64,000 nt of DNA from an uncultured Gammaproteobacteria bacterium (lineage in GTDB: Bacteria; Patescibacteriota; Patescibacteriia; UBA9934; GWF2-40-263): the NCBI GenBank assembly GCA_964402425.1, contig CAYOCD010000001.1, positions 82,934 through 146,933 of the forward strand, read 5' to 3'. The stretch's first letter is position 1. Each line of letters starts with the position of its first letter. The translations under genes and the position numbers were made by a program. Positions 18,414 through 63,819 of the stretch are shown piece after piece. Under the pieces are notes generated by a model. The model did no database searches, had not been told where the DNA came from, and worked only from the letters and a program-made list of their open reading frames with translations.

Positions 18414-18478
18414 TTAAAAAATGAAAAATCCCTCAGTTTCTTGCGAAACCAAGGGACGAGTTGAGGGGTCCAGGGCTG

Positions 18479-39833: not shown

Positions 39834-39862
39834 TTGACAAAATCGCAAAAATCGAGTACTCT
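39834..39862 (+). promoter_or_regulatory. Sigma-70-like promoter: TTGACA, 17-nt spacer, TACTCT. Lies upstream of 39931..40407.
   Basis: cgattgacaaaatcgcaaaaatcgagtactct. Strong SD AAGGAGG 5 nt before the ATG at 39931. Confidence 0.35.
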
Positions 39863-39930
39863 CTTCCGGTCAAGGTGACCCTTATGAACGACCGAGGAGT
39901 GGTCGAGTTCATCCAACCAAGGAGGAAACG

Positions 39931-40407: not shown

Positions 40408-40480
40408 CACCCCTTTTGGGCGGGTGTCTTTTTCTTTTATCAGAAAACACGTGACCGATCGGTCGCGTGTTTTTATTTTT

Positions 40481-40528
40481 ATTCCTTTCAGACCTTTCCG
40501 CTCCTTCCGCCTTCTCCGCCCTTCCCCT
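40481..40528. repeat. Solo arm C of the GGCGGAA-type GA-rich element (CCTTTCCGCTCCTTCCGCCTTCTCCGCCCTTCCCC) abutting the ftsA stop codon.
   Basis: Seen in sequence. Confidence 0.6.
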
Positions 40529-43652: not shown

Positions 43653-43666
43653 ATGTTTTACGATTC

Positions 43667-44299: not shown

Positions 44300-44354
44300 A
44301 TGTGGGGGAAAGTAGTAAGTAGAGAGAAGAAAGTAGAAAGGGGGAAAATGGAAA

Positions 44355-45158
44355 TTACTTCTTTAAAGGATCATACCCAGCATTTATCTCTTGTCCATCA
44401 AGAAAGGAATCGCCGTCTGTATCTGGATTGCGTGGATTTGTTCCATACAGAACGATTTCTTGTGTTGAGTCAATACCATCAAGATCCGGATCATTCACCA
44501 AAACTTGCGCTCGACATTCTGCAGAACGTTTTGGATCAAGTACGGCACAAACTTCCGCATCTTGTACTTGATTTGCTGCCGCAAGAACACGAACAAAGAA
44601 ACAATCTCCCTCATTATTCTCGCAAACCTGTGTTGTTGCAGATGCAATGACCTGCTTACAACTTATTTTCATTTGTCCATCCACTATTTTATCACACAAT
44701 GCCGTATCTGACGCAGTAATCGCCTTCAACACATTCAATTCATTCACACATCCTGACAACCAATCTTTATTTGCTATTTTTTCACAAATCGAAACATCTT
44801 CATTTACACGTGCCACACTCCAAAAACAATCATCTTTGTCTTCTTCTGTCAGAACATCACAGCTTTCTGATTTTTTTTCCGTGATCGCACGTTCTTTTGT
44901 TTTCAACACCTTACACGCCTCAGAATCTTCCGACACTTCACAAGACGCTTCTGCCGAAACAGATGTTGTGACTTGCTCCGATATTGTCCCAAAGACGCTC
45001 GCTGCTCCTGTCGCTTGCGTTGCTTGAGGAGTACGGTCACGAATGACATAAAGGACCCCTCCAATGATTCCCAGAGCCAAAACAACCCCGCCCGCAATGA
45101 TCGCGATCAGTTTCCAGGGGGTTTGTTTTGACTCGGATGGTTGGTCACCAAAATCCAT
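44355..45158 (-). CDS. Single-pass membrane protein with a Cys-rich ectodomain and C-terminal DxDxDG repeats (paralog 3).
   Basis: TM WKLIAIIAGGVVLALGIIGGVLYVI. About 14 Cys. C-terminus DPDLDGIDSTQEIVLYGTNPRNPDTDGDSFLDGQEINAGYDPLKK. Confidence 0.55.
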   Translation of the reverse strand: MDFGDQPSESKQTPWKLIAIIAGGVVLALGIIGGVLYVIRDRTPQATQATGAASVFGTISEQVTTSVSAEASCEVSEDSEACKVLKTKERAITEKKSESCDVLTEEDKDDCFWSVARVNEDVSICEKIANKDWLSGCVNELNVLKAITASDTALCDKIVDGQMKISCKQVIASATTQVCENNEGDCFFVRVLAAANQVQDAEVCAVLDPKRSAECRAQVLVNDPDLDGIDSTQEIVLYGTNPRNPDTDGDSFLDGQEINAGYDPLKK

Positions 45159-48100: not shown

Positions 48101-51100
48101 GGTATTCCAGTAAATCCCTGTGATTTAAACCAAGCCATTGGTGACAGATAATTTGGATTTGAGAGAACACGCACTCCAATAGAGTCTTTTGTTCCAGAAA
48201 CGCGGAACACTAATTCTTTCAAGACATCTGTTGTAATGAGTTGATTTACATCTGGTGTTGCATCTGTTGGAGGAAGTTCAAGAGCAGGCAGCTTCTTTCC
48301 TTCTTCTGGTTTTCCAACATCTCGACAATAGAATAAGGAGAAGTTTGTGTTCGCTCCATTTTCAACAAATGGAACCCCGTGTGCCAAATCCGGCCATGGA
48401 TTTTCACACAAGAACGCAACCTCTGACACATGACCAGATACAGCCGAACCAACCGTTGATTTTGCACTTATTGTATCTGCAGAGATTGTTGCGGTTGCAA
48501 TAACATTTCCTGAACCGTTCTTTCCAAGGGCTTTATATTGCGCTGTTTGTGCGATGCTTGGTCCAACAATTCCTAAAATATCCATTTTAGTTGCCGTATC
48601 TTTCACGTTTGCAGCCCAGACCCACGTCCAAGCGTATACACCTGAAATTGAAGAGATTTCTTCAAGTGTTCCTGTGTTTTTGCGATAAGAAAACGGCTTT
48701 GTTGTAAATGCGTGGACTTCATTTGTCTTAGAATAATATCCGGGGCTCTTTGAGAGATACGAAGGTGGAGTTGGGGTGATTCCACCATCTGTTGTTTCCA
48801 CAACGTCAAGCAAACAAACATCCGCACCGGTTGTGAAAGTACTTGAGAGAGAAACAACGGAGCAAGTTGTGCCATTGTCACCAAGACAAACACTGACCTT
48901 GTTTTTACTAAGAACTCCCTTTGACGTTTCTCCGTTTTTTGTTTTTACCGTCAATTTATATTGCGCATTTGGAAGTAATTGTTCTGTGTAACGAAGATAA
49001 ACTTGATGTGTACCTGGGTCTTGTTCAAACGAAACAGGAACAAAACATTGCGTGGTTGCATTTGCCATGGCAGATTGCCCAAAAGCATCTTTAACCCAAT
49101 TCCAAACAAAAGAGAAAATATTTTTTGCACGCATGAATCCAACAGGCTTTGGATAATACGGACAGTTAACTGCTGTTACAGCCTCATTGATACCTAAACT
49201 ATTTTTCTTCGTAATCAGCTCAAGCTGAAGATTTGGATCTGTTTCTGCCGCACTTAATTTTCCATCTCCGTCAGTATCTACGGAACCAAACGTACTCGCA
49301 TCCATTTCTTGATCAAACGCAATGGAAATAGCCGTATTGCGACAAATGTTTGTTGCATTATTTCCAGGAACCATCGCTGTAATCGTTGGGCGCTCAAAAC
49401 AACACTTTTCCACACCGCAACCAAGCGATTTTGAAGATTCCCCTGTTTTTGTTCCACACTGATTATCGGAAGCACAGGAACAAAGCAATTTCACTTCGCC
49501 TGTACCTGTCTTTCCTCCAACGGAGACCTGTACATTTGAAACAGCATATCCGTATGTTGCTTTTTTCTCATCTTTTTCTACCTCAAGCGACGCTCCACTT
49601 GAAACTTCTGCAACACCATAAGCACCAACGGTATATGTTGCGGAAGCAGCTGCTTCACACTGCTCGCCCGGTTCAAGAGCTCCCCCATTTCCACAAACAG
49701 AAGGGATAGCATAATTTGGATTTGAACCCATCTTTAAACAACTCTTTGAACATCCAGGAGCGATAGATCCAACACCAAGATCACATCCTGCATCTTCCCC
49801 GGAATCTGTAACACCGTTTCCACAGACAAATTTTGCTGGATCTTTTCCAGGACTTGTTCCGCGATTCAAACAAAGATCTGTACAAGCCACTGTGGTACGA
49901 ACCTCACATTTTGAACCATCCTGACACGCTGCACCACCAATGGTACAGACAGCCCCATCCGCACAATGCGTTCCTGGATCACATGTCTCTCCAACACTAG
50001 CAATTCCATCTCCACAACGTGCATTTGAATACGCAACAACACCTCCTTCAAACAAACAATTTGAGGAACATCCATCTCCTTCTTTTATGTTTCCGTCATC
50101 ACAGGCTTCCCCACCATTTGTCTTTGAGTTATCAGCAACTCCGTCTCCACAAATAGATTTAATAGAGGAAACCCCTTCAAACAAACACTTTGCAGAACAT
50201 CCATCTCCACCCAAAACTTTTCCATCATCACATTGTTCACCCGCATCCACAACGTTATTTCCACACGTTGGAGCAACCGTTCCTTCTTTCAAACAACTTG
50301 ATGAACAGCCGTCTTTGTCATTTGTGTTTCCATCATCACAAGACTCCCCGTAATTTACTGCCCCATTTCCACAAACAGCTTGTCCGACTTTGATTGGGTT
50401 TCCTGTATACAAACAGTTTCCTCCACACATTTTTGGGAGTGTGTTTGTAAGAGCAAGCGAACCATTATTCAACAAAAACGCAGTGATCTCATTGTATTTA
50501 TGATCTGCTCCTATTACATACGATGCTGCACCGATCTTGTTTGGTGTATCTGTTGCACCCCATCCACCCCATCCACTTGCTTGCAAGGCTTGCCCTGTTA
50601 CAGAACATTCGTCCGGAGCTCCATATGCAATCGCGTTGTATTCTTGACGTTGACCAACATATTTAAGTATTGCCGACTTTGGAGAAAGCCCAACACGATC
50701 AACGGCACATGAGGTGAGCGAATCTTTTGACTTAAATTTCCAAGAAAACGCACCTGGATAAAATTTATTTTCAGGAGTTCCGTAATTAGATCCAGATTCT
50801 GAAAGAGATGAGGACACACTCGATTTAATCCAATCTGCGACAACAACTCGATACCACGTATTTGACACAAACGCAGCGCCATCTGTCACAATTGATGCTC
50901 GATATGTTGCAGAATCATATATGACACTCGTAACATGATTCCATGCGGTCAACTGACTCTTTTCACAAAGGGCATTTTCACATTGAAAAATACGAATTGC
51001 ACCCGCAATATTAAAGACAGCTGGATTCATTGGAACATTAAATGAAACCCACGGCTTCACGTTTGCACATGCGGCAGAACAGTTTGGAAAATAATCACTT

Positions 51101-54100
51101 ACTTTTGGTGTTGCAAGCGCGATGGTCAGAAGTCCTTTATTCGTTGGTTTATTTCCAACATCCGTAACCGTTGCACTAATTTCTGCAGGGATTCCAATAG
51201 GGGTGTTATAAAGAGGATTGACATTTACGGTACAAACACCGGCTGCAGGATTACTTGTTAATGTGTCACCCGGTAGGAATTTTGCTGCCTGTTGTGAAGA
51301 ACTCCAACTTACCGAATGTCCAGCACACGCAAGCACAACACACTTGTCTTTGTTTGAAAGTAATTGTGCAAGATATCCAACAGCATCTCCGGCATTTTTT
51401 GCCGTGAACGTTGCTGGAGAAACACTCACTCCACCAACACCACATGGCGCATTTGAGGAGGATGTTCTGAATTCCCAAGAATAATCTTTTGCCATGGAAG
51501 CACCCGAAACAAGTCCATTCACCTTAGATTTTACCCCACCCCCAGGAGCAGATGCCCCTTTGATGGTAACGCGATGCAAAGTACTTGTATCAAAATGATT
51601 ATTTGGAGACCATTGAAATGTATATTCACCTGGTGTCTGAAAAGAACCTGGCACCACTTGCCAATCTGCTGCTACACATGTTCCATTTACCTCTTTGGCT
51701 ATTGGACATTTTTCTATAACGATATTTGTGTTTCCGATACCGATCGTTGCAGGATCCATTGGAACCGCAAACGAAGCTGTCACTGCAGCTGAAACACAGA
51801 TATCATTTTGCGTACTCCAAAGTGGTGATGGGGATGGTGATGGCTTTGGAAATTTTGGATCCGCACAATTCACAACAACCGTTGGCGCAACAGGAATTGG
51901 GCTCGTTGAAACCTTGTAAACAAATTGAGAAAATTTCGGCCCATCGCTTGGACAGGCTTGGCCTACAAGTGAACACGAGCCATCTCCACAGCATGCCTGA
52001 CCAGCCGTACAGAGACTTGGAGTTTGCAGACAATTTCCAACCGCAAAATTTACCGAGTTTGATTGTTTCAGCGCAGCATCTACCACATAAACAGGACCTG
52101 ACTTTGTTCCAACAGGAACGCTCGCTGATCCGATTTCAGTTCCTGTCCAGGAACCAGGATCTTCGGAAAGATTTGTTGTAAACACAACCGCTCCTTTTTG
52201 ATCTCCAAAATTTTCTCCAAAAATATCAATCGATGTTCCGGCAGGACCCGCGTTTTTGCTTAAAAGACAAATTCCTGGTGTTGGTTTTCCATCCACAACG
52301 GTAAATGGTTTTGCATCAGAAGCATTTCCGGTCTGAGGCACAACACTCACTTCATAATTACCAGGTTTGATAGGACTCTTATCTAGATTAAATGGAACTT
52401 TTACCGTAACCGAATTAGTGTGCCAAAAAAGATCTCCACAAGCTTTTGGGAACTCTACATTTCCGTTTATAACCTCATTTGAAGTAAGATTTTTAAATTT
52501 AACGTATCCTGTAGATGACCCAAAATTGGATCCATAAATGGTTACATATTGTCCAGAAGGACCCCATGCTGACTGCGATTTACAAGAACCAGCTACGCCA
52601 CCACAATCCTTATCCGTAGAACAATATTGATTTGCTATCGCTCCTCCATTACAGACTTTCCAACCTGTATCAATTGTAGCGATCGTTGCTTTTTCTACAT
52701 TTGGTGTGTTTGTTGCAACAAATTTCTTTGTATTAGAACCAACGCGAACATCCATACATGTTCCACCCGCAGCTCCACAAGCCGTATTATCCTGACAATA
52801 TTGAAGCGTCTCAGAACACCAGGACATTCCACACTTATATGCTGCATCTACTTTTGTACAATCCGCATTTGAAAAACAAGAAAGCGCTGGACTCACTTTT
52901 GCCCCACTCGCATTCAAACAGAAATAATCACCTGTAAAAACTTGGGCATTATACGTTCCGCTTGCAACTCCTGGTACATTTCCTTTCAATTCCGTCGCTC
53001 CCCACAAAGAAGGCGTCAACTGAAAATTTGAAAGATAAACAGAAGACGAACCTTGTCCAGCACCAAACGCAAGACCAGTCAGAGTAATTAACGTATTCAC
53101 TTCCGCAGCTGGTGTAATCGAACACAAACCAGGGCGCTTAATTGCGTTTACATCAAATTTAGATATGACGGGTCCAACAGCATCATCAGTTCTTTCTGAC
53201 TGTGCTGCTGCCCCCAGAGCACCTGCTGGAATATTGATTTTTAACGGACCATCAATAGCACCAGCCGGTACTTTCACAACAATTTCCTTTTCTTTCCAAG
53301 AAGAAGTTCCGCCACACTGGAATGCGTTTGCCACTTTTGTCGTTCCATCTTTTTCTGCTCCAAGAAATTCAACCGTACCGGGCGTTGTCCCAAATCCAGA
53401 ACCTGTAATCGTGATTAAGTTTTCTACAGCACCATTGTCTGGAGAGATAGATTGAATAACAGGGACATCCTGACATCTTCCTGCAATACAAAACCCAGAA
53501 GAACATTGTGCATTACTCGTACACGCAGACGGCTTACAGAGCCCGCAAAAATATTCGCTTGTTGCGTCTCCACCACAATCACACGCATCACCAACTGCAC
53601 ATGTTCCCGTTTCTCCATACGGAGCACTTGCATCTTGCGTGCCATTGTCACAGTTTGGCGCACGAAGCATGACAGAAACTTTTCTGGAAATTTGTGTAGA
53701 TCCCGCACAATCAGTAGCCATTGCCCAAACGGCATATGACTTATTTGCAACAAATCCAACCGGAGTCCATTCTCCATTAAAAAATGCTGTTGTGAGTCCA
53801 TTTAATGCCGTAGGATTCACCGCAATAGAAGATGTATCAACAGAAGTTTCTCCGTCTGCAGCAAAAAATTCAACACTGGCCACTCCTGTATCATCAACCG
53901 TTCTTACTTGAAGTGGTTTGCTTAATCCCAAAATAGCTTTTGCTCCAGCTTGTGGTTCTACAAACGAAACTTCTTGAGGTGGTTTTGTGTCCACAACAGA
54001 GCCTGTTGTGAAATCAAACGAACAAGGATTCACTCCCCCCTCCGTCTTACAAGTAAGCGTTGCACCGCTTGCTGATTTAACTTGTGCAGGATCTACCTCA

Positions 54101-54816
54101 ACATGAAATGCGGCGTTTGGTGCAAAACAAGACAAAGATTCATTTGGAGTCGGACATTTTTCTTCTGGCGTGAACATGACTTTTCTGCCAGAAAACGTAA
54201 AAGACCCGGGAACATCCACCCCGTCTCTTGTGATCTTTATTCCCTTTTCATCTTTCACGGATTTTGAAAAAACAAGGGATAATTTAAGGTTACGAACACC
54301 CGCAGCACATTGGATAATGGACGTTGGCGGATTTAATGAGAATACAGGAGTTGGTGACGGAAACGGTGAAGTTTTTAAACAAGATAGATCTGTAGGATTT
54401 TTTTTACAAAACGCAATAATATCTGCATTCGATGTTGCTCCCACCAACTTTGAAATGACGAATTGTGCAATCGCAAACGATGACAAAACAATCACAAGAC
54501 CGATTAAACCGTTTTTAATGGAGTTCTTTGCTTTTTTGAGACGATCTTCGTTTCCACCCGCCGTCATGTACATGAATCCTCCGTACAGAACAATCATGAC
54601 CGCAATAATTCCAAGAAACGAAATGACTGTGCGAATCAAACGCGCAATAATGACGGTAATGGAAGGCCCTGTTGAAAACCCCGCGTTGGCCGCAAAAGAA
54701 GCAAACGCATCTGGATCTACAGGACTTGCAGCGAGGATTGGTTGAGCAAAAAAGATTCCCGTGCAAAGGAGAACGGTTAGAATAAACATCGATTGAAGCA
54801 ATCTGCGGAGGTTCAT
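45163..54816 (-). CDS. Giant (3217 aa) cysteine-rich cell-surface protein. N-terminal signal peptide plus two-helix membrane hairpin domain, SbsA-type Ig-like / beta-rich regions, and at least 10 Myxococcus-type cysteine-rich repeats (CGNGxxxxGExCDDGNxxxGDGCSxxC).
   Basis: Single uninterrupted ORF. N-terminus MNLRRLLQSMFILTVLLCTGIFFAQPILAAS...IIARLIRTVISFLGIIAVMIVLYGGFMYMTAGGNEDRLKKAKNSIKNGLIGLVIVLSSFAIAQFVI. Repeats such as CGNGAVNYGESCDDGNTNDKDGCSSSCLKEG, CGNNVVDAGEQCDDGKVLGGDGCSAKCLFEG and CGDGAINGGEYCDG. Confidence 0.7.
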   Translation of the reverse strand: MNLRRLLQSMFILTVLLCTGIFFAQPILAASPVDPDAFASFAANAGFSTGPSITVIIARLIRTVISFLGIIAVMIVLYGGFMYMTAGGNEDRLKKAKNSIKNGLIGLVIVLSSFAIAQFVISKLVGATSNADIIAFCKKNPTDLSCLKTSPFPSPTPVFSLNPPTSIIQCAAGVRNLKLSLVFSKSVKDEKGIKITRDGVDVPGSFTFSGRKVMFTPEEKCPTPNESLSCFAPNAAFHVEVDPAQVKSASGATLTCKTEGGVNPCSFDFTTGSVVDTKPPQEVSFVEPQAGAKAILGLSKPLQVRTVDDTGVASVEFFAADGETSVDTSSIAVNPTALNGLTTAFFNGEWTPVGFVANKSYAVWAMATDCAGSTQISRKVSVMLRAPNCDNGTQDASAPYGETGTCAVGDACDCGGDATSEYFCGLCKPSACTSNAQCSSGFCIAGRCQDVPVIQSISPDNGAVENLITITGSGFGTTPGTVEFLGAEKDGTTKVANAFQCGGTSSWKEKEIVVKVPAGAIDGPLKINIPAGALGAAAQSERTDDAVGPVISKFDVNAIKRPGLCSITPAAEVNTLITLTGLAFGAGQGSSSVYLSNFQLTPSLWGATELKGNVPGVASGTYNAQVFTGDYFCLNASGAKVSPALSCFSNADCTKVDAAYKCGMSWCSETLQYCQDNTACGAAGGTCMDVRVGSNTKKFVATNTPNVEKATIATIDTGWKVCNGGAIANQYCSTDKDCGGVAGSCKSQSAWGPSGQYVTIYGSNFGSSTGYVKFKNLTSNEVINGNVEFPKACGDLFWHTNSVTVKVPFNLDKSPIKPGNYEVSVVPQTGNASDAKPFTVVDGKPTPGICLLSKNAGPAGTSIDIFGENFGDQKGAVVFTTNLSEDPGSWTGTEIGSASVPVGTKSGPVYVVDAALKQSNSVNFAVGNCLQTPSLCTAGQACCGDGSCSLVGQACPSDGPKFSQFVYKVSTSPIPVAPTVVVNCADPKFPKPSPSPSPLWSTQNDICVSAAVTASFAVPMDPATIGIGNTNIVIEKCPIAKEVNGTCVAADWQVVPGSFQTPGEYTFQWSPNNHFDTSTLHRVTIKGASAPGGGVKSKVNGLVSGASMAKDYSWEFRTSSSNAPCGVGGVSVSPATFTAKNAGDAVGYLAQLLSNKDKCVVLACAGHSVSWSSSQQAAKFLPGDTLTSNPAAGVCTVNVNPLYNTPIGIPAEISATVTDVGNKPTNKGLLTIALATPKVSDYFPNCSAACANVKPWVSFNVPMNPAVFNIAGAIRIFQCENALCEKSQLTAWNHVTSVIYDSATYRASIVTDGAAFVSNTWYRVVVADWIKSSVSSSLSESGSNYGTPENKFYPGAFSWKFKSKDSLTSCAVDRVGLSPKSAILKYVGQRQEYNAIAYGAPDECSVTGQALQASGWGGWGATDTPNKIGAASYVIGADHKYNEITAFLLNNGSLALTNTLPKMCGGNCLYTGNPIKVGQAVCGNGAVNYGESCDDGNTNDKDGCSSSCLKEGTVAPTCGNNVVDAGEQCDDGKVLGGDGCSAKCLFEGVSSIKSICGDGVADNSKTNGGEACDDGNIKEGDGCSSNCLFEGGVVAYSNARCGDGIASVGETCDPGTHCADGAVCTIGGAACQDGSKCEVRTTVACTDLCLNRGTSPGKDPAKFVCGNGVTDSGEDAGCDLGVGSIAPGCSKSCLKMGSNPNYAIPSVCGNGGALEPGEQCEAAASATYTVGAYGVAEVSSGASLEVEKDEKKATYGYAVSNVQVSVGGKTGTGEVKLLCSCASDNQCGTKTGESSKSLGCGVEKCCFERPTITAMVPGNNATNICRNTAISIAFDQEMDASTFGSVDTDGDGKLSAAETDPNLQLELITKKNSLGINEAVTAVNCPYYPKPVGFMRAKNIFSFVWNWVKDAFGQSAMANATTQCFVPVSFEQDPGTHQVYLRYTEQLLPNAQYKLTVKTKNGETSKGVLSKNKVSVCLGDNGTTCSVVSLSSTFTTGADVCLLDVVETTDGGITPTPPSYLSKSPGYYSKTNEVHAFTTKPFSYRKNTGTLEEISSISGVYAWTWVWAANVKDTATKMDILGIVGPSIAQTAQYKALGKNGSGNVIATATISADTISAKSTVGSAVSGHVSEVAFLCENPWPDLAHGVPFVENGANTNFSLFYCRDVGKPEEGKKLPALELPPTDATPDVNQLITTDVLKELVFRVSGTKDSIGVRVLSNPNYLSPMAWFKSQGFTGIPKAAKLDGYEAVQTGTTIYAAAANRNGSNLYSNIYVISFNADAGKDAQQIFDLVLQNFRLNANDTGVTGVSHVGLCKSGSAYVPPSGPFTTCSWDGDCLDQCKPDGKCSVSDKVCNPKLGNAECAVADPNMFCDADKQKLIRDTKRLTDVTEMVTTFEKYGNTNGRCAVTKSQACVVSQNSKAGTGANSACPGTETCIPSYPTIQAGTFVPSVSNSIWPSWNSTLGNEVGGALPTDPLNQFWGQCKNVGEGYDSATCWNSAQGKSLCPNGSHVYGYQNFGGEAYVLTTELEYSTVAWNNKIDASGDQATIKAAYLNGKAPANLLPGFVSTSAYCNATVFGSSTICGDGVKGVGEDCEIGEVKSIACANNAGFINVTCKNDCKNYATDAAAEDAAKKAGGTCKPFSCGDGVIDKALGEVCDDGTALNGTYGHCGKDCKVVSNFACGDGYLAGNEQCDCGTPSNWSTLAGTSWAKSGNHCATYNGNYDKDGKNCTAECKAPGPMCGDNLINDSSEKCDGNTETYAGALNNDGTKCTASSGCPVAACAKAKICTAGTTIGAICTDDASCGAGGKCSAEQYDLTRTRTCQNYNNPSSNSCQWITNLAGGGWGACAGGPQQCGNGKKEGTEECDDGNSSSNDSCTNACKTNVCGDNFVNVGIESCDSGKANGIACNAAYGSSCNFCNQYCQYKTQSGPYCGDGAINGGEYCDGTKLNGTCTKSISADEMDLKGPCDSKDVGLTSDGTANGKKDDGSTSTWHGTSCDKGYSCRIVGTCNGGSLRGENGKKCAAYQNNCDGYCETSGSTCNWNGDCNTANNEKCIGVGTCVLPTCSSSCNSSCPTAFQKVALQVQGNVAESQPSSSITLFSLENTEGKTPDRASLLLPACRVGVGITANVSSSSSLLNAGNTVSLIAATFKDANGKYTLPQTGTSLLEIGNGLKLPLPSKFICQDAPFSLPINVKLNPTSASVTLSNIEFTYCPVN

Positions 54817-54826: not shown

Positions 54827-56737
54827 TTACGGTGCGATCACAGGATAGGGACACGCGGGACTTGAAACTGAGCTCGATGGTTCTCCGTTACAGCAATAAG
54901 GCTTCGTTTCATCTGTTCCGTTACAATTTTTTGCTGAACTTGCGGCTGTTGCCGCTGACGGGAACATACAAATCTGATACACACTTTTGACATCTTGTGT
55001 GACAGATGGCCAATAAGATGACCCACCTTCTGCATTTGAAATAAACGCTGGATGAGAAATATGTACGACGGATTTAGTTGGGATATCTGTTTTAAGCGCA
55101 TTCGGAAGATCTGTTTTTGATACCGAGTACCACATGGGATATTTTGGATCCGGCAACAAAGAGATGTTTGTTGCATTGACTGTTGAGGCTTTGAGCAACG
55201 TATTAAACGAAAGTGTAACATCTGCCGATACATCAATGTTTCCTTCAAGGATATCTGGTGCAAGCGCTTCAATTTTTGGAACCGTGTCATTAATGATGTT
55301 TGTTGTCTTAAAACTCCATGCGTAATCATCATTTGCTTGCGTTCCGGAACACGCAACACTATCTTTTGAACTTCCGCATGCTTTACCATCATTATTTCCG
55401 TCTAACGAATTTCCTGCGGCATCCACAACTCCATCATAACTTACCCCAGTCAAAACACCTTGTGGGACGTTTGTAGGATCAATACTTGCTGCTTTAGCCG
55501 TAACGGTTATTTGTTTTCCTCCTGGCAAACAATAAATCTTTCCACCACACGGATCTTTTCCACAATCATCTGTTGTTGTGAAACTCACTGTTTTATATCC
55601 GTTACTGATATCATAAGTACCGTTTATTGGGTTTGCTCCACCATCACTTGATGCGATACGCTGAAATGCCTTTAGCTCTCCCCCTCCCGCAAGATATGTT
55701 CCTGATACAGCGATCGGATCCATTGGTTCATTAAATGTCAGTTCTATGGAAATGTTTCGTGCAAATTCTGAAAGTGATTGACCTTCTTGTAAAGGCTTCA
55801 CGGATGGAATGACAGAAATAATCGTTGGTGGTGTTAAATCAACATTGGTTGAAACGGTGAAATTCCATCCATATCCTGCCGAATTCACACCGGTAAATGC
55901 AGCACCACCCGCTTGTTTTTCAATACTTGGTTTAAGAGCAACGGTAAAAGATGCATTTGTTTGAGGATTTCCAAGATATGTAACTGGCTTGAACACAAAT
56001 GTCTTGAAATCCTCACTCACAGTTACCACAACTTTATCACTCGCAAGTTTTGTTGTTTCACCTTTTGCTGTCTCAAAAATGGAGACGGCGTTTGTTTTTA
56101 ACTTTGTGCTACACAAAGGAACGGTTTGATTAGCTGCAACTGTATACGTACAAGGTGATTTGTAGCCATCAATAATGGTCTCAGGTTTAATTGGCTCTTT
56201 GAAGGTAACAAAGATTTTTGTGTTACGTGGAACATCTGAAGCGTTTCTGACAGGAAAATGACTTTCAAGAATACCCGCCCCAAGTGAACCCGCAAGCGGC
56301 TCTGTATATTTTTTTGCAACAGACACAATCGAGCCTGGGCCATAAGCAGCATTAAGCAATTTTCCAAGAATCCATGAAGCGATGGAATAGGAAGAAAGAA
56401 TAATGACAAGACCGATGACTGCGTTTGAAATGATCTTTTTTGCTTTTGCAACTTTTGCCAAATCTCCGGAAGCGGTCATGTACATGAACCCGGCAGAAAT
56501 AACCAAAAGAACCATCACAATTCCAAGAACCCCAAGAACTGCCCGAATGATGCGCGCAATGAAAATAGGCAAGCTTGTTTGTGGGAGTCCTGCTCCCTCA
56601 CCCAAAGACTGAAGAGCATCCGCTGCAAATACCCCGTGCGGAATCAAAAAAGATCCGATGACAACAAAGAACAGCACACCAAAAAAAGCTACTCTGTAAG
56701 CCGGAAGTTTATTTGTAAGACGGAAAAATCGCTTCAT
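54827..56737 (-). CDS. 636-aa surface protein with the same N-terminal two-helix hairpin domain as the giant protein, followed by Ig-like (SbsA_Ig-type) domains and a Cys-containing C-terminus.
   Basis: N-terminus ...FIARIIRAVLGVLGIVMVLLVISAGFMYMTASGDLAKVAKAKKIISNAVIGLVIILSSYSIASWIL. Ig-like signature TPPTIISVIP...ISIELTFNEPMDPIAV. 10-nt gap to the giant gene. Confidence 0.65.
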   Translation of the reverse strand: MKRFFRLTNKLPAYRVAFFGVLFFVVIGSFLIPHGVFAADALQSLGEGAGLPQTSLPIFIARIIRAVLGVLGIVMVLLVISAGFMYMTASGDLAKVAKAKKIISNAVIGLVIILSSYSIASWILGKLLNAAYGPGSIVSVAKKYTEPLAGSLGAGILESHFPVRNASDVPRNTKIFVTFKEPIKPETIIDGYKSPCTYTVAANQTVPLCSTKLKTNAVSIFETAKGETTKLASDKVVVTVSEDFKTFVFKPVTYLGNPQTNASFTVALKPSIEKQAGGAAFTGVNSAGYGWNFTVSTNVDLTPPTIISVIPSVKPLQEGQSLSEFARNISIELTFNEPMDPIAVSGTYLAGGGELKAFQRIASSDGGANPINGTYDISNGYKTVSFTTTDDCGKDPCGGKIYCLPGGKQITVTAKAASIDPTNVPQGVLTGVSYDGVVDAAGNSLDGNNDGKACGSSKDSVACSGTQANDDYAWSFKTTNIINDTVPKIEALAPDILEGNIDVSADVTLSFNTLLKASTVNATNISLLPDPKYPMWYSVSKTDLPNALKTDIPTKSVVHISHPAFISNAEGGSSYWPSVTQDVKSVYQICMFPSAATAASSAKNCNGTDETKPYCCNGEPSSSVSSPACPYPVIAP

Positions 56738-56809: not shown

Positions 56810-56946
56810 GAGTAAGGCTATAAAGGCAATAGAGGCTTGAGATGCCGAAGGGAACAAAAAAAAGAACGCGGTCAACGCGTTCTTTATTTTCTTGTTTCTT
56901 TTTTTCGGCATCTCAAGCCTCTCCAGCATCTCTCGCCTCTCTAGCT
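56810..56946. repeat. GA-rich palindromic element H: 16-bp perfect inverted repeat GAGGCTTGAGATGCCG/CGGCATCTCAAGCCTC plus CTCTCGCCTCTC arm. Loop carries the hairpin GAACGCGGTCAACGCGTTC. Abuts the stop of the yqeY-fusion gene.
   Basis: Seen in sequence between 56737 and 56941. Confidence 0.7.
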
Positions 56947-57714
56947 TATCTGATTCAATACCGCCGTTGTGACAAAAAACAACGCCACAACAACTCCCAT
57001 ATTCATAAATCCACCCATGATTTTCTGTTCCGCTTTATCTCTTACAACATCTCGTGCGGACCCAACAGTCATTTCAATCCCACCACGAATAATTTCAATG
57101 ATAGAAAAAAGTCCGGCGAACAAGAACATGACACGCACAAGACGAATCCCCATTTCAAGATATGGCAAATACGAATAGGTTCCGAATTCTGGCAATGTTA
57201 TCATGCCGATTTCCGCATGCGCAGAAGAGACGACTATCGTATTTACCAAAACAGCAAAGATAAACACTCCAAGCAACTTCTCAACGAGTCCTTTCACACG
57301 TGTACCGTCAGCACGCCCTGCAACGGCCTTCATGACAAATCCCATCGCCTTGCCCATGTCCGCTTTTGATGCAGCTCCCGATTGCAAAACAGCTTCACGA
57401 ACCACCATTTCAAGATCGGCATCAGACAATTCTGCTGGCATGTATTTTTTTAACACTTCAAGCTCAAGTTTATTCCCTTCTGCAAGATCGGCTCGTCCGC
57501 CAGCCTCAAACTGATCAATCGCTTCTTTCAATTGTTTTGCCTGAGACTTAATCACATCCGATACCTCCGCATCCGTAAGCGGACGCATAAGATCAATCTC
57601 TTTATTTTTAAGAGCAGACTTAAGCATGCGAAGTGTGGAAAGTGTTGATTCGTCTTTTGCACGCATGGCGTCTTTAAGGTCTGAACCGATTTGTTCAAGA
57701 AGAGTCATAGACAA
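56941..57714 (-). CDS. yqeY: GatB/YqeY-domain protein (N-terminal 150 aa) fused in frame to a C-terminal signal-peptide-like segment plus a third copy of the two-helix hairpin domain. Possibly two genes sharing a frame (internal GTG start).
   Basis: YqeY pattern LKDAMRAKDESTLSTLRMLKSALKNKEIDL...LTDAEVSDVIKSQAKQLKEAIDQFEAGGRADLAEGNKLELEVLKKYMP. The tail LLGVFIFAVLVNTIVVSSAHAEIG...IRLVRVMFLFAGLFSIIEIIRGGIEMTVGSARDVVRDKAEQKIMGGFMNMGVVVALFFV aligns with the N-termini of 54827..56737 and 45163..54816. Confidence 0.6.
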   Translation of the reverse strand: MSMTLLEQIGSDLKDAMRAKDESTLSTLRMLKSALKNKEIDLMRPLTDAEVSDVIKSQAKQLKEAIDQFEAGGRADLAEGNKLELEVLKKYMPAELSDADLEMVVREAVLQSGAASKADMGKAMGFVMKAVAGRADGTRVKGLVEKLLGVFIFAVLVNTIVVSSAHAEIGMITLPEFGTYSYLPYLEMGIRLVRVMFLFAGLFSIIEIIRGGIEMTVGSARDVVRDKAEQKIMGGFMNMGVVVALFFVTTAVLNQIS

Positions 57715-58119: not shown

Positions 58120-58650
58120 TTAGCGAGATGCTGTAATCGTTGTGGTTGTAGCAGCTTCAGATTCACAGGCTGTAACGGTTGCGATTCCATTTGAATCAAC
58201 GGAGAGTGCGTATCCTGTTCCTTTTGAGGATCCGCTATCCCAAGTTGTTGCACCTTTTGGACTAATTGGAACGCTCTTCAAGTATCCTCCCGAAACAAGA
58301 CCAGTCAAATCTACACAGTTACCGGTTGCTGCGATTGTTGCGTCACATGTTGAATTACAACCAGACGCCATCGGTTCTCCTGTAATCATGTAATTTGTTC
58401 CGGCTGTTAATGCTGCAACAGAAGCAAGATACGATCCCCCATTATCAACTTGCTGCAATTTAATAGCCGATAAAACTTCTTGCACGGCATTTTGTCTCAC
58501 AGAATCACGAGCTTGTTGAAAACGTGCTGCTGGATTTAACGCCACAAAAATAACCCCGACCAAAACTCCCACAATAGCAATAACAACAAGAAGCTCGATT
58601 AAGGTAAACCCTTCATTTGAACGCATGACGGACACTTTTTGAGTATTCAT
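58120..58650 (-). CDS. Type IV pilin / pseudopilin (class III signal, N-methylation motif).
   Basis: SNEGFTLIELLVVIAIVGVLVGVIFVAL matches G|FTLIEL with E+5. Confidence 0.75.
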   Translation of the reverse strand: MNTQKVSVMRSNEGFTLIELLVVIAIVGVLVGVIFVALNPAARFQQARDSVRQNAVQEVLSAIKLQQVDNGGSYLASVAALTAGTNYMITGEPMASGCNSTCDATIAATGNCVDLTGLVSGGYLKSVPISPKGATTWDSGSSKGTGYALSVDSNGIATVTACESEAATTTTITASR

Positions 58651-59642
58651 ACTGACACATTAAAAAAATTATGTTGAGAGATATATGTATGAGGCTGCGC
58701 CGCACGAAGCCCCGCACCAATGGACGCCGCAAAAATCTGACATTCGGTTTTTTTCATTTTTGAATGTTTTAACAAGTCTCCTGCGTATGAGGGAGAAATC
58801 TGCGGAAGACGTGTTTTGATTGCTTGAACCATGTTTGCCGTCCGCGCCTCTGTTCCGGCAAGCAAAAACAGATTCACAAAATAATTCTGCGACTGGAAGT
58901 ATAACACGGCTCCTTCTGTTATCCCAATCAAACTATCCACAATCTCATCCAAAAGCTCACCCGGAATATTTGCAGAAATGTTCTGTTGTTTATAAGAAAT
59001 TGTACGAGAAAATAGACGCGATCCGTTTTGTGTACAAAATGAAAGTGTAGCCCATGCATGTCCAATATCTAAAACGCCGTCACACATTTTTTGATCACGT
59101 TTTTTGACAGCCGTTTTCTGAAACACGTGCTTTAAACGAAAAATAGATTGGATATTTGATTCAATCGCCATGAGATGCAACCCAGTTTCAACAAAACTTG
59201 TTTCAATCCCCTGAACAACAGGTGCATCAACAGCATAAACGGTTGTCTGTACCTCTTGCGATTCTTTTTCTCCAAACGAAACATCTATACGAGCAGATTC
59301 AAAATTCAACGGAATTTCTTTTTGCGCACGCACGTGCGCCAACTCTTCCAACTCTTCTTTTTTTAATGTGGCATCTGATAAAAACGAATGAGAAAATACG
59401 CGCGATTCTGGAATCAAACAAACCGTGCGCATGTGCTTTGTTGAAAGCCCCATTTCAGATACGGTTTTTTTCACAATAGCCTGAAAGGCTTTTGTATCCA
59501 CAATCTGTTCATCAAGCACAATCCCTTCATCTAAAACAACTTCCTTACACTGAAGAACATGACCAAAAAGACCAACATGTGCAAAACGCACATGGTGTTC
59601 GGAAAAATCAATGCCTATTCCTGAAAAATATTTTTCAAACAT
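58647..59642 (-). CDS. PilM-like type IV pilus assembly protein (actin-like fold, no TM).
   Basis: N-terminal GIGIDFSEHHVRFAHV resembles the PilM/FtsA phosphate-1 motif. 331 aa. Embedded among pilin genes with 4-nt overlaps. Confidence 0.4.
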   Translation of the reverse strand: MFEKYFSGIGIDFSEHHVRFAHVGLFGHVLQCKEVVLDEGIVLDEQIVDTKAFQAIVKKTVSEMGLSTKHMRTVCLIPESRVFSHSFLSDATLKKEELEELAHVRAQKEIPLNFESARIDVSFGEKESQEVQTTVYAVDAPVVQGIETSFVETGLHLMAIESNIQSIFRLKHVFQKTAVKKRDQKMCDGVLDIGHAWATLSFCTQNGSRLFSRTISYKQQNISANIPGELLDEIVDSLIGITEGAVLYFQSQNYFVNLFLLAGTEARTANMVQAIKTRLPQISPSYAGDLLKHSKMKKTECQIFAASIGAGLRAAQPHTYISQHNFFNVSV

Positions 59643-59645: not shown

Positions 59646-60047
59646 TTAATCAACTTCTTGCCAACTCGTTAATGTAACAAGCGAACCTGATTTTACAAGA
59701 GTTGTTTGCAAACGCCGCGTATATGGCCCTGTAACGGATGAAATATTTACCGTACAGCTCCCGCAAGGAGTTCCCTGAACCACAATTGTACAAACAGCAT
59801 TTCCAACAGGAAGAGTGCCGCCATTATAACTTGCATTTCGTTTAATGCGAAGGATGGCTTCTTCTGCACAACTCTCGGCAGACATAATCGATTCAGTACT
59901 TCGCCATTCAGAATACCCTGTCTCTAAATCATCCACTCCAAAAAACATCACTCCACCCAACATCAGTGAAATAATAGCAAGAACAATCATCACAACAATG
60001 AGTCCAGCTGATCCAGTTTGATTAGAGCGAAGAGATGACAACATACT
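59646..60047 (-). CDS. Pilin-like protein with a degenerate prepilin signal (NQTGSAGLIVVMIVLAIISL; lacks F+1 and E+5). Likely start MLSSLRSNQ at 60047.
   Basis: The listed ORF 59646..60140 overlaps the upstream gene by 94 nt. The internal ATG at 60047 removes the overlap and yields a leader paralogous to MRNQKGFTLFE of the neighbour. Confidence 0.4.
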   Translation of the reverse strand, partial: SMLSSLRSNQTGSAGLIVVMIVLAIISLMLGGVMFFGVDDLETGYSEWRSTESIMSAESCAEEAILRIKRNASYNGGTLPVGNAVCTIVVQGTPCGSCTVNISSVTGPYTRRLQTTLVKSGSLVTLTSWQEVD

Positions 60048-60568
60048 CAAGGGAGAGGTGGAATGCGAAATGAGGACTGAAATGATTTTGTTGCAGAATA
60101 AAAGGGGGTATTCGATGGGTTGAGCGTAGATAAATCCCATTCTGCCCGTACAACCCCTTTATCTTTTACTGTTGTAAGATTTGTAAACACAAGATTTGTC
60201 ACAGAAATCTTTGCGGTTGTTAGAGAAACAAACGCACCCCCTTGTTCACTCACTTCAAGTGTGCCGTTATCTTGATTAAGCCTGAATACGGTTGGATTTT
60301 TAAGAGGGTCAATCATTTCAAGCGAAAGAACACCTGGATCCGTCCCAAAAACAGAAGATCCAACTTGGATGGATTTTGCATGGCGCACAGCGTCTGAAAG
60401 ACGTTCTTCAAACAAACGTGAGGAATGCATAATTTCTGATTGTGCTTGGATTTTTACTCGTGCATTCATGAGCTGCATGACAAAGGAAGATAGGGTTACC
60501 AAAATAAACCCAATGAGGGATACGTATAAAATGGCTTCAAATAATGTAAACCCTTTTTGATTACGCAT
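60047..60568 (-). CDS. Type IV pseudopilin (prepilin motif KGFTLFEAILYVSLIG).
   Basis: MRNQKG|FTLFE with E+5. Confidence 0.7.
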   Translation of the reverse strand: MRNQKGFTLFEAILYVSLIGFILVTLSSFVMQLMNARVKIQAQSEIMHSSRLFEERLSDAVRHAKSIQVGSSVFGTDPGVLSLEMIDPLKNPTVFRLNQDNGTLEVSEQGGAFVSLTTAKISVTNLVFTNLTTVKDKGVVRAEWDLSTLNPSNTPFYSATKSFQSSFRIPPLP

Positions 60569-60569: not shown

Positions 60570-63407
60570 TTACGGAGAATAAGAGGCGCTCACATCTAAC
60601 AGACTTGGTGCGTTTGATCCATCACCAGATAAAATAGCCTGAAATTGGATCCAGCGTTTTCCTGTTGCCGCAGGGTCTGTCACCACAGCTGTTCCTGAAA
60701 CGGTATAATGTGAGGCAGATGTTCCGAGTGGACCAACCCATTTTGCTGTTTGAAGATTCGCTTCTGAATCCGCTGTCCGGATCATGAACTCAACCGTTCC
60801 CGTTCCAGACGTGGTCCATTCAAGCGAATCCCATGTAGCAACAGACGTTGCATCATACGCCTGAGAAGTAAAAATAGCTTCATGTGCATAATTTGGAAGT
60901 GTGAGGGGTCCCAAAATCTGAAGTGTTTGTGTTGTACTAGATGTAACCACGAAAACAGTTGATCCTTTATCGATAATTTCAACCCCACTTGATCCTAAAT
61001 TTTCTATTGAAACAAGAAGGGGGCTTGCGGGATTTGAAATATCCCATCGTTGATACTGTGCACCTGTTTGTGCCGTTGCTACCTGTAACGCACTACTATC
61101 TGTTTGCGAAAGTCCGACAACATCCCCTGTCGTTTGTGCTGATCCAAGCAAAGAAGGAGTCGCAGAGGTAATGTTCAACAGCGAAATCTCTGGATCCGTA
61201 CCATTTAATCGTCCCAAAGCAAGCGTAGAAGAATAAATCGAAATAGCCGCACCATCTTGGTTTCCAGAAGCATTATAAAGGGAAAGTACGGAGGGTGCGG
61301 AAGGTGTCGCAATATTTACAATGGCTATTTCCCCTGAATTGTTTGTAGATGCAGCATATAATCTTGTGGAATAAATACCGAGATCTAAGATATTTCCTGT
61401 TAAGTTCACACTCCCAATAACAGATGGCGTAGCTGGGTTTGTGATATTCACAACATACATCTCTGGACTTGAACTTGTATTGACCCCCACATACAAGTTT
61501 GTTCCTGATAAAGCCAGAGCGTTAGCCGCTTGTGAACCGGAAAGATTAACGCTTGATATCAGTGTTGGTGCCGCCTTATTTGTGATATTCAAAATTCTCA
61601 CTTCAGAAGATGTATTTGCTGTTGCAAGATAGGCATAATTTCCGCTTACAATAATACGATTAACCGATGATCCAACCAGATACGACCCAACATACGTCGG
61701 CGTGCTTGGATTTGAGATATTATAAATCGTAAATTCAGGTTTTGAACTTCCCGATGTTGTTCCAACGTATGCGTAAATACCATCCACAAACAAAGCAGAA
61801 CCTGGGCGAGGATTACTTTGGTTTATTGTGCTCGACACCTGCGGATTACTCCACCCTGCGTTTATCACGCCATACACAAGTATTTCCGAACTGTTGTCAT
61901 CGCTTCCGAAATAAACATTTGTTCCGTAAATAGCCGCAACTTTTCCACCTCCGGCAACCGAAGCATCTATTGTCTGATAAAGAGCGAGGGTTGCAGGATC
62001 CACAAGCACAAGTTCATTTGTCAAACCACTCGTTGCAAGCGCAAGGGTTGTTTTTTGTTTATTAAAGGATATTTTATTTACAGATGAACCAAGCTCAAGT
62101 CCACTCAATGTTGGCATACCGTTTTCAGGCATAGAGCCATCCAATCGCACAAATTCAACACCCGCCCCAGACGCACGACCAACAAAGATCGTCGTTCCAT
62201 CTACGGCAACAGAAAGAGCGTCTGTTGCCGTAGGCATATCAAGCGTATTCAAAATCGACATTGTTAATGCCTGTATCGCTGTAAGCTCTGCCGAATTTGC
62301 ATTTGATACAACAAAGACATGTTGATGATTCAATGCAATACTCGTTACATCATATCCAAGCTCCGTACTTCCAATAAGCGCAGGAGTGACTGGATTTGTT
62401 ATGTCATAATAAAACACCTCTTGTGTACTCACACTGCTCATACGCCCAATCACGAGCCAGTTTCCATTCAGAGCTAAAGCTGTTGCCTTTGCATTTTGCG
62501 GAAGATCGATCGTTGCGACCGTAGCCATGGTAAATAAATCCACGACCACAATTTCCGCTCCTTCTGAACCATCATCATCCGCTGACACAATGACATAATC
62601 CCCTTTGACAACAAAACTTGTTCCTTGCGTTATGTTTTTTCCTCGTAACAAGACAGGTGCTGCATTTGAAATATTTGAAGCATCATAAACCTGCAGTTCA
62701 TTTCCAGTAGTTGAGTCTTGTAATGTAATGAGTACATTATGCGATTCATCAAAAAACATGTCGATCATGTCACCAGATCCATTTGCGTTTATACCGAATC
62801 GTGATCCTATGCTATTCCAGTTTGCACTTGCCGGAGCAAGAGTCACCTCCCCTCCGGAAATTGTTGTTGCGACAGAACCGTTATTGATTCCCGCGCTAAA
62901 ATCTGCAAGGAGTGTTTGTACCCACGCCAAAGAAGTCCAGTTTGTAATGTAAAAAACGGAAGTCAAACTTTTTACCTTTGATGCAAACAGTGTCCAAATA
63001 ACGTTGATAGATACTTTTTTTGTTTTTGTATCCAAAACACCCGTAGGGGCGATGTCCCCCGTTAAACTTCCGTTTCTATAAACATCCTCAACCATCACCG
63101 TTCGTGTAAATCCACCAGGTAAAGATTCAGACGTGCCGCTAAATTCAAATTTGGATCCGTTTGTTGTGAGTCCATGTGCACCATTTGTGACATTTGCCCA
63201 TGCTTGATCACGAATAGATCTCACAGCTTCCAACCCTTCCCCCATGTACCCACGCGCAACAATATAATCACCCCCCTGTTTTGAGGAATGCAATCCGGAA
63301 AGAAGCGTGGAAACAATTCCTGTTCCGATAACCGCAAAAAGACCGGTGATCAAAATGATCTCGATCATGGACTCTCCTTTTTGATTATTCAATCTTGCCC
63401 GCAGCAT
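60570..63407 (-). CDS. Large pilin-like protein (945 aa): prepilin N-terminus (NNQKG|ESMIEIILITGLFAVIG) fused to a beta-propeller of at least 8 LVIVD-like repeats. Candidate pilus tip adhesin.
   Basis: Repeats YDITNPVTPALIGSTELG, VNITNPATPSVIGSVNLTGN, VNIATPSAPSVLSLYNASGN, LNITNKAAPTLISSVNLSGS, YNISNPSTPTYVGSYLVGSS, WDISNPASPLLVSIENLGSS, each followed by YA..A or VAT hydrophobic strands. Confidence 0.6.
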   Translation of the reverse strand: MLRARLNNQKGESMIEIILITGLFAVIGTGIVSTLLSGLHSSKQGGDYIVARGYMGEGLEAVRSIRDQAWANVTNGAHGLTTNGSKFEFSGTSESLPGGFTRTVMVEDVYRNGSLTGDIAPTGVLDTKTKKVSINVIWTLFASKVKSLTSVFYITNWTSLAWVQTLLADFSAGINNGSVATTISGGEVTLAPASANWNSIGSRFGINANGSGDMIDMFFDESHNVLITLQDSTTGNELQVYDASNISNAAPVLLRGKNITQGTSFVVKGDYVIVSADDDGSEGAEIVVVDLFTMATVATIDLPQNAKATALALNGNWLVIGRMSSVSTQEVFYYDITNPVTPALIGSTELGYDVTSIALNHQHVFVVSNANSAELTAIQALTMSILNTLDMPTATDALSVAVDGTTIFVGRASGAGVEFVRLDGSMPENGMPTLSGLELGSSVNKISFNKQKTTLALATSGLTNELVLVDPATLALYQTIDASVAGGGKVAAIYGTNVYFGSDDNSSEILVYGVINAGWSNPQVSSTINQSNPRPGSALFVDGIYAYVGTTSGSSKPEFTIYNISNPSTPTYVGSYLVGSSVNRIIVSGNYAYLATANTSSEVRILNITNKAAPTLISSVNLSGSQAANALALSGTNLYVGVNTSSSPEMYVVNITNPATPSVIGSVNLTGNILDLGIYSTRLYAASTNNSGEIAIVNIATPSAPSVLSLYNASGNQDGAAISIYSSTLALGRLNGTDPEISLLNITSATPSLLGSAQTTGDVVGLSQTDSSALQVATAQTGAQYQRWDISNPASPLLVSIENLGSSGVEIIDKGSTVFVVTSSTTQTLQILGPLTLPNYAHEAIFTSQAYDATSVATWDSLEWTTSGTGTVEFMIRTADSEANLQTAKWVGPLGTSASHYTVSGTAVVTDPAATGKRWIQFQAILSGDGSNAPSLLDVSASYSP

Positions 63408-63819
63408 TCAGGTTTAAAGTTATGGTTTTACCCGTTGATCCTTGTGTAAGAACAATATCACCTGTTGTACTTGGAGTTCCTGTGCGTGCCGAAAACAGCA
63501 CTTCCGTAAGCCCCGATAATACCAGATCTTCCGGAAAAGAATGTGCTTGATCAAGTGCTGTCACACGTGCCGCATACGTATCCCCTGCAAACAAGACCAT
63601 CTGCGAAGCATTAAACTTAACCCCCCATGTTTCATCTTTTGTTCCTGTAATTGCTTTACTTTGCGCCCGACGAACGGTTTGTAAAACAATGGCGGATTCT
63701 ATGGAAAGTTGCGTGCGTGGAAACGCAGCAACAGACAAAGACCCAACGATTGAAAATAAAATCGCTGAAATGGTAAGAACGATAATCAACTCAATAAGGG
63801 TAAAACCTTTTTGATTCAT
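63385..63819 (-). CDS. Type IV pilin/pseudopilin (GspH-like). Start MNQKGFTLIEL at 63819; the listed ORF extends 34 codons upstream.
   Basis: MNQKG|FTLIELIIVLTISAILFSIVG. The stop of the pilC fragment lies 1 nt upstream. Confidence 0.7.
   Translation of the reverse strand: MNQKGFTLIELIIVLTISAILFSIVGSLSVAAFPRTQLSIESAIVLQTVRRAQSKAITGTKDETWGVKFNASQMVLFAGDTYAARVTALDQAHSFPEDLVLSGLTEVLFSARTGTPSTTGDIVLTQGSTGKTITLNLNAAGKIE

Follow-up and report, generated by a model that had tools for sequence, protein, structure and literature searches.

We analysed a 64,000-nucleotide stretch of contig CAYOCD010000001.1 (assembly GCA_964402425.1) from an ultrasmall Patescibacteria bacterium, hereafter the window, and in it a gene at positions 60570..63407 of the minus strand that encodes a protein of 945 amino acids (aa). 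The open reading frame (ORF) is intact from its ATG to its stop. In a row of four minor-pilin genes the gene takes the second place, ahead of pilM and a probable major pilin gene, and its product joins a prepilin-type leader and a pilin module to two predicted beta-propellers and a conserved C-terminal domain.

Domain architecture of the 945-aa protein

The N-terminus of the protein reads MLRARLNNQKG/ESMIEIILITGLFAVIGTGIVSTLLSG, where the slash marks the predicted cleavage site. The 11-residue basic leader (residues 1-11, 63375..63407; minus strand, as are all features of the protein given below) ends in Gly at position -1; Glu stands at +5, and a run of about 20 hydrophobic residues comes next. 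The four elements of a class III (prepilin) signal, namely basic leader, Gly at -1, Glu at +5 and hydrophobic run, were all present (MLRARLNNQKG/ESMIE, continued by IILITGLFAVIGTGIVSTLL), and the site of the prepilin peptidase PilD is predicted after Gly11. In the family alignment of the protein and its relatives, E16 (+5) was invariant and the Gly at -1 was conserved, being aligned in eight of the ten sequences with an intact N-terminus. The same pattern was seen in a set of 160 proteins bearing the pilin module, drawn from the top profile hits and the earlier homologues: [GAS]xxxxE with a hydrophobic stretch was found in 148 of them, with Gly at -1 in 137, and most proteins without the motif begin with 'M(I/L)E...', i.e. 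look like mis-called starts. The +1 residue across module-bearing proteins was mostly Gln (61) or Phe (39). Four orthologues scored above the 21.2-bit cut-off of the N_methyl family PF07963 (P0005, 28.1 bits; P0009, 22.3; P0091, 27.4; P0100, 23.4).

The pilin module spans residues 12-165 (62913..63374). In the predicted structure it folds as a true pilin, with E16, a hydrophobic alpha1-N and a long N-terminal alpha1, reaching to about residue 66, that packs on an antiparallel beta-sheet. Its closest folds were GspI, EpsI and XcpV of the type II secretion system (T2SS), PilV of the type IVa pilus (T4aP), ComGE of the Com pilus and PilA of Streptococcus sanguinis, and a GspI-class fold agrees with the second place of the gene in the minor-pilin row, after a GspH-like pilin. 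With profile hidden Markov models (HMMs), sub-threshold matches were obtained to ComGE in six of the 11 family members (best E 4.8e-4), to PilV in one (1.5e-5) and to GspI in one (7.6e-3), none of them from the 945-aa protein itself. A profile search of PDB sequences with the module returned nothing significant (spurious LigA matches). We conclude that the N-terminus forms a genuine pilin module, which modest scores together with gene order place in the GspI/PilV/ComGE class. The module is followed by a linker (residues 166-199, 62811..62912), which was delimited on the alignment and in which, with the end of the module, W162-x-Q164, F170 and G186-E187 are conserved. Confidence of the AlphaFold2 (AF2) model was low here, the predicted local distance difference test (pLDDT) score staying below 50 across residues 159-195.

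The payload behind the linker is predicted to form two seven-bladed beta-propellers of the LVIVD type, at residues ~200-520 (61848..62810) and ~521-836 (60900..61847). AF2, run with the full family alignment, gave a mean pLDDT of 73 and a predicted template modelling (pTM) score of 0.46. Residues 200-835 were modelled confidently (pLDDT 80-95) as 56 strands, 28 of them in the first propeller (pLDDT ~75-92), which correspond to 14 four-stranded blades. At the sequence level, 14 repeats follow one another at intervals of 43-50 aa, and each closes with an 'E-h-x-h-h-[DN]' strand. The second propeller bears the sharp h-x-V-x-N-I-[ST]-N-P-x-x-P repeats, and the motif N-I-[ST]-x-P-x-x-P occurs in 6 to 8 of the 14 repeats, depending on stringency. 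In Pfam, the protein exceeded the cut-offs of both LVIVD (PF08309; 42.7 bits vs 20.2, E 3.5e-11, in four stretches) and Beta_propel (PF09826; 30.7 bits vs 22.4), and LVIVD scores in orthologues reached 114.7 bits. A profile search of PDB sequences with the whole family found nothing significant, the best match being YncE (E 0.017). The 610-aa relatives P0011 and P0012 lack the first-propeller region, i.e. they hold one propeller's worth of sequence. A recent expansion of the repeats at the DNA level was also considered and rejected, because the only tandem repeat in the gene was a trivial 9-bp array; the repeats are therefore old and diverged.

The last part of the protein, residues ~837-945 (60573..60899), is a conserved beta-rich domain of no known family, hereafter the C-domain. 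Of 162 related proteins, 68 contain it, among them minimal forms of ~300 aa that consist of pilin module and C-domain, and it is retained in relatives with a different middle payload. AF2 confidence in this domain was only 41-66. Its profile had no match among PDB sequences, and a Pfam scan of 30 such C-terminal domains gave only scattered single matches at E > 0.005. In two relatives of 1228-1229 aa (P0009 and P0010), an insertion of ~280 aa lies within the C-domain (alignment columns ~900-1195), and in P0009 it showed a weak, sub-threshold match to H-type lectin (E 0.0031), an indication that the C-domain can accept or house additional binding modules. Within the 945-aa group, mean pairwise identity was 57% for the pilin module, 56% for the C-domain, 41% for propeller 2 and 35% for propeller 1, the most variable part of the protein.

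A preliminary description, made from the letters of the window and their ORFs, had proposed a true pilin with a canonical prepilin leader, fused to a single LVIVD-like propeller of at least 8 repeats, as a candidate tip adhesin. The pilin is borne out by the predicted fold of the N-terminal module and by the conserved PilD motif, and the LVIVD-like repeats by the PF08309 score and the propeller fold. The leader keeps Gly at -1 and Glu at +5 on alignment but is not fully canonical, its +1 residue being Glu. Likewise, 'at least 8' is about right for the sharp motif and undercounts the blades, of which there are 14, while the single propeller has to be replaced by two, with the C-domain as a conserved third module. 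Two observations had been named beforehand as speaking against the fusion, repeats that score neither as LVIVD nor as any propeller and an alignment without a PilD site; both were checked, and neither held.

Relatives and exchange of the payload

A homologue search returned 12 true relatives with 33-60% identity, plus a 100% identical fragment. All homologues named by taxon are labelled Patescibacteria or Candidatus Uhrbacteria, and the others are metagenomic sequences. A word-indexed search with the N-terminal 192 aa gave one protein only, and an exhaustive HMM search was needed to reveal the family: when 1.84 billion representative proteins were searched with a profile built on residues 1-165, 8,838 of them matched at E ≤ 1e-3, of which 205 reached E ≤ 1e-30.

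Local HMMs of the pilin module, each propeller and the C-domain were then run on 162 retrieved proteins to define architecture classes. The pilin module was joined to propeller(s) and C-domain in 40 proteins and to a propeller in 10. A further 27 combined it with the C-domain and another or no middle region, among them the minimal forms of ~300 aa, and in 83 it stood alone or with unrecognised extensions, at lengths of 100-2116 aa. In P0071, four ConA-like lectin (Laminin_G_3) domains lie between the pilin module and the C-domain, and P0040 has a payload of unknown type; both genes hold the same operon position as the 945-aa gene.

The module was also found in a scan of species-representative genomes, in metagenome-assembled genomes (MAGs) labelled Uhr-, Sacchari-, Peregrini-, Woese-, Moran-, Levy-, Vogel-, Shapiro-, Doudna-, Gracili-, Nomura-, Komeili-, Jorgensen-, Wolfe-, Berkel-, Pace- and Parcubacteria. 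Complete ORFs at these loci encode 142 to 1740 aa. Forms of 459-489 aa, present in Saccharibacteria, Pacebacteria and others, consist of the pilin module and one LVIVD propeller, which aligns over its full length to the second propeller of the window protein (E 1e-51 to 1e-75). Among the best 120 clusters, nearly all cover 95-100% of a 467-aa single-propeller query, with strong LVIVD scores. Within this known kind of protein, the double-propeller form is the rarer one, with ~20 homologues as compared with more than 100 of the single-propeller form. Taken together, one carrier pilin module is reused across the candidate phyla radiation (CPR), i.e. the Patescibacteria, and its payloads are swapped at a fixed gene position.

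Two further observations were made in the scan. A 1007-aa ORF that starts near position 6001 of a Saccharibacteria MAG locus (L016) has the same pilin module and C-domain, with an internal copy apparent by eye, and its payload consists of 'D-I-W-A-V-G..G-x-I-x-H-Y-x-G-x-x-W' repeats, probably another propeller type. At 17 loci the pilin is of the Patescibacteria type, yet several of the MAGs are labelled Gammaproteobacteria, Pseudomonadales, Bdellovibrionales, Vicinamibacterales or Omnitrophica; these labels probably reflect mislabelling or bin contamination.

The pilus operon and its surroundings

The placement of the gene inside a type IV pilus cluster, as given in the preliminary description, was confirmed for the minor pilins, PilM and a major pilin, all encoded in the window; judging by synteny in relatives, PilB and PilC lie beyond its end. 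All genes of the operon described here are on the minus strand. Upstream is a GspH/ComGD-like minor pilin (63385..63819), 144 aa long when counted from Met35 of the listed ORF (N_methyl 36.5 bits; ComGD E 5.8e-9; GspH E 2.4e-6). Its gene and the beginning of the 945-aa gene share 23 nt, and a 144-aa gene with the same overlap is present in the relative L001. Downstream lies a minor pilin of 173 aa that begins with MRNQKG/FTLFE (60047..60568; N_methyl 21.6 bits, weak ComGE and ComGF matches) and that, from the gene order, is probably the subunit of the GspJ position. The fourth gene (59646..60044) encodes a minor pilin-like protein of 132 aa from Met33, recognised from its sequence (...NQTG/SAGLIVVMIVL), without Glu at +5 and with no family match. 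It fits the GspK/PilX position, where L001 likewise encodes a protein of 132 aa; the J and K identities are our inference. A PilM-like assembly protein of 331 aa (58647..59642; PilM_2 PF11104 50.3 bits; TIGR01175 E 9e-16) and the probable major pilin of 176 aa (58120..58650; ...SNEG/FTLIELLVV; N_methyl 33.8 bits; GspG-like E 6.5e-8) complete the operon, and the major pilin gene is its last gene in all relatives examined.

The row formed by the H-like pilin, the 945-aa gene, a pilin and a pilin without Glu at +5 mirrors the comparable gene rows gspH-I-J-K, fimU-pilV-pilW-pilX and comGD-GE-GF-GG. A row of H-like pilin, large gene, pilin and K-position gene (pilin-like in the window) was also found in five relatives (L001-L004 and L006), and the contig of a sixth (L005) begins at the large gene, the H-like position not being visible there. 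The full operon order in relatives is pilB(-pilT)-pilC, H-like pilin, large gene, pilin, K-position gene, pilM and major pilin. On their contigs PilB (MshEN plus T2SSE) and PilC precede the pilin row, and in Uhrbacteria a PilT-like ATPase is encoded between them. Since relatives have pilB and pilC just upstream, synteny indicates that the window ends just short of pilC and pilB.

Several other features of the window lie next to or apart from the operon. Between the major pilin gene and genes of T4SS_pilin-like proteins, a 257-aa protein is encoded at 56941-57714 (minus strand), the first ~150 residues of which match YqeY (154.7 bits) and the remaining ~100 of which look hydrophobic; in L001 the corresponding place is taken by a YqeY gene of 255 aa. 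Directly downstream of the pilus operon, on the minus strand, are the genes of a 636-aa protein (54827-56737), which has a T4SS_pilin / TrbC-VirB2-like domain (PF18895) at its N-terminus and then a Big_5 domain, and of a 3217-aa protein (45163-54816), for which T4SS_pilin/Big_5 content was seen only in the L001 counterpart. The gene pair is syntenic in L001. Three consecutive ORFs of 331, 210 and 267 aa with bacterial thrombospondin type 3 (TSP3_bac) repeats (42657-45158, minus strand) are flanked by the gene of the giant surface protein and by ftsA/ftsZ (38292-41786).

A stretch at 14000-24000 has a guanine-plus-cytosine (GC) fraction of 0.52-0.59, as compared with ~0.42 in the remaining window. 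Four minus-strand ORFs in it (812, 542, 319 and 321 aa) match the putative metal-binding repeat 'Cu-binding_MopE' several times (E down to 1e-40), and one of these ORFs also bears a Somatomedin_B domain. An rRNA operon was considered as the content of this stretch and rejected, because Rfam gives only a transfer-messenger RNA and one tRNA, and the ORFs are those of the MopE-repeat proteins. A foreign island, an assembly chimera or the composition of Cys/Asp/Gly-rich repeats could account for the raised GC fraction.

Interpretation and comparison with known systems

The 945-aa protein is probably a modular minor pilin that a Patescibacteria type IV pilus displays at its tip, with the propellers as the ligand-binding head. 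In the mechanism that we propose, the prepilin peptidase would cut after Gly11, and the GspI/PilV-class module would use its hydrophobic alpha1 to assemble with the three remaining minor pilins of the operon. By analogy with the GspI-J-K complex, the assembled minor pilins would prime pilus assembly and come to lie at the tip of the pilus. The payload follows the pilin module on its C-terminal side, an attachment that would expose both propellers and the C-terminal beta domain at the distal tip. A tip module of ~780 residues would need no channel, since Patescibacteria have neither an outer membrane nor a secretin. The fast-evolving propellers may then fasten the bacterium to a host cell or a surface, with envelope glycans or proteins as the most plausible targets. 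At the level of sequence, the contrast between conserved carrier parts (57% and 56%) and variable propellers (35% and 41%) argues for such a role, as do the conserved leader motif, the conserved operon and the exchange of payloads at one gene position, and architecture, gene context and precedent are consistent with a tip adhesin.

Several points weigh against this interpretation. The 945-aa protein gave no match to PF07963 at E ≤ 10 and none to TIGR02532 at E ≤ 1, probably because its +1 residue is Glu instead of Phe. Among the module-bearing proteins examined, this Glu12 (63372-63374) recurs at +1 only in the closest relative, P0002. None of the 11 family members gave a match above the curated cut-offs of the GspI, PilV and ComGE HMMs (TIGR01707, TIGR02523, NF041013), and no gene for a prepilin peptidase (Peptidase_A24) was found among the window ORFs scanned. 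The relative placement of the domains is not settled in the AF2 model (pTM 0.46). No ligand-binding site was identified in the propellers, the invariant residues of which look structural in the family alignment.

These points were weighed together with four other explanations. The missing N_methyl match and the Glu at +1 would be expected of a membrane-anchored surface protein with an uncleaved signal anchor that merely sits in a pilus locus, and SignalP likewise gave no PilD signals for PilX1 and PilX2 of the Saccharibacterium TM7x. Such an anchor is nevertheless the least probable explanation, given the Gly at -1 and Glu at +5 that are conserved across relatives, the GspI-like fold, the fixed place among minor pilin genes with translational overlap, and the orthologues that exceed the N_methyl cut-off. 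Propellers acting as enzymes at the pilus tip, for example as a hydrolase or lyase on host envelope polymers, are hardly more probable: no conserved His, Cys, Asp or metal-site pattern was seen among the invariant columns, every enzyme-family match stayed below threshold, and the propellers are the least conserved part of the protein, unlike an active-site scaffold.

The propellers might instead capture extracellular DNA at the tip of a DNA-uptake (competence) pilus, which we regard as improbable. The similarity to YncE is generic to seven-bladed propellers, the operon of the Uhrbacteria orthologue has a PilT-like ATPase, the TM7x pilus with its propeller pilin made no contribution to competence, and sister proteins carry lectin payloads. 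Somewhat less improbable, though still unlikely in our view, is a mainly structural or assembly function, in which the minor pilin primes or caps the filament at its tip or docks another secreted protein, as CofB does for CofJ. Here the relatives are informative, since the exchange of the payload for lectin-type modules points to ligand recognition, and PilX2 of TM7x is dispensable for filament extrusion but needed for efficient host binding.

To our knowledge, all cultivated Patescibacteria live attached to other microbes. Their host recognition is largely unknown, and type IV pili count as one of the few surface machines that they have conserved. A propeller-bearing tip pilin would be a concrete candidate for a host- or surface-recognition determinant in uncultured groundwater CPR bacteria, and its propeller payload offers a defined domain for expression and binding tests. 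More tentatively, and with less confidence than in the tip adhesin itself, the GspI-class tip pilin and the C-domain may form a CPR-wide cassette in which they bracket an exchangeable recognition module, be it one or two LVIVD propellers, ConA-like lectins, another propeller type or an unknown fold; the window protein would be one allele of this cassette. The C-domain would serve as a docking domain that folds back on the tip complex, and swapping and rapid divergence of the module between them would set the host or surface open to each episymbiont. If so, the cassette would be comparable to the exchange of receptor-binding proteins on phage tail fibres.

Among known proteins, the GspI/EpsI/XcpV, PilV and ComGE pilins and S. 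sanguinis PilA resemble the N-terminal module most closely, in fold and in the place of the gene after that of a GspH-like pilin. Unlike the 945-aa protein, GspI-type proteins are small (globular part of ~80-130 aa) and carry no payload, and the similarity lies below family cut-offs. GspK, CofB/TcpB and ComZ are tip-located minor pilins enlarged by a non-pilin domain. In GspK and ComZ, however, the insertions lie inside the pilin beta-sheet, whereas CofB has beta-repeat and beta-sandwich domains and trimerises; a beta-propeller occurs in none of them. The 945-aa protein also recalls PilY1 / PilC of the T4aP of Pseudomonas, Neisseria and Myxococcus, in which a large propeller protein implicated in adhesion is tied to the minor-pilin tip complex. 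PilY1 / PilC is a non-pilin protein carried by minor pilins, whereas the 945-aa protein has its own pilin module. A relationship to PilY1 was rejected, as no match to the PilY1 family (PF05567 / IPR008707) was obtained at E ≤ 10 and PilY1 was not among the top fold matches.

The closest functional precedent comes from oral Saccharibacteria. In PilX2 of TM7x (Nanosynbacter lyticus; pilin locus TM7x_02975-02995), a minor pilin whose signal peptide is non-canonical, a lollipop module is combined with a seven-bladed propeller at the C-terminus (PMC11623550; bioRxiv 2024.11.25.624915). Deletion of PilX2 roughly halved host binding and did not abolish filaments, and it was proposed as a tip adhesin and likened to PilY1 by the TM7x authors themselves (PMC11623550). 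PilX2 is described as having a single propeller with RCC1 repeats and the window protein has two LVIVD propellers and a C-domain; the resemblance between them is one of architecture. Three Saccharibacterial MAGs (L045, L055 and L056) hold the pilin module of the window protein fused to one LVIVD propeller.

Modular pilins were defined by Raynaud et al. 2021 (PNAS, PMC8179133). Among them, S. sanguinis PilB (pilin plus von Willebrand factor A domain) is an adhesin, located most probably at the pilus tip, and S. sanguinis PilC joins a pilin to a ConA-like lectin (PMC8179133). Dataset S1 of that study lists about 30 proteins that combine IPR012902 (N_methyl) with IPR013211, the latter in one (8 proteins), two (8), four (4), five (7), six (1) or 13 (1) copies, plus one with IPR019198, and an 860-residue Candidatus Falkowbacteria protein was singled out for 12 copies of a 'motif of unknown function' (PMC8179133). 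IPR013211 is the LVIVD repeat (PMC10210494), and no pilin of the LVIVD type is known to have been studied. The 945-aa protein has the N-terminal pilin and at least one module not specific to type IV pili by which modular pilins are defined, and its architecture is found in Dataset S1. It shares with these proteins a pilin module with a class III signal, a linker, a bulky functional module, a monoderm cell plan and predicted tip display and adhesion; it differs from them in its two LVIVD propellers, its additional conserved C-domain, its GspI-class module and its fixed operon position. The concept of modular and of propeller-bearing tip pilins is thus already published (PMC8179133, PMC11623550), which makes the value of the present analysis incremental. 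It adds the assignment of the carrier to the GspI class, the double seven-bladed architecture, a conserved C-domain that had not been annotated, and the breadth of reuse of the module.

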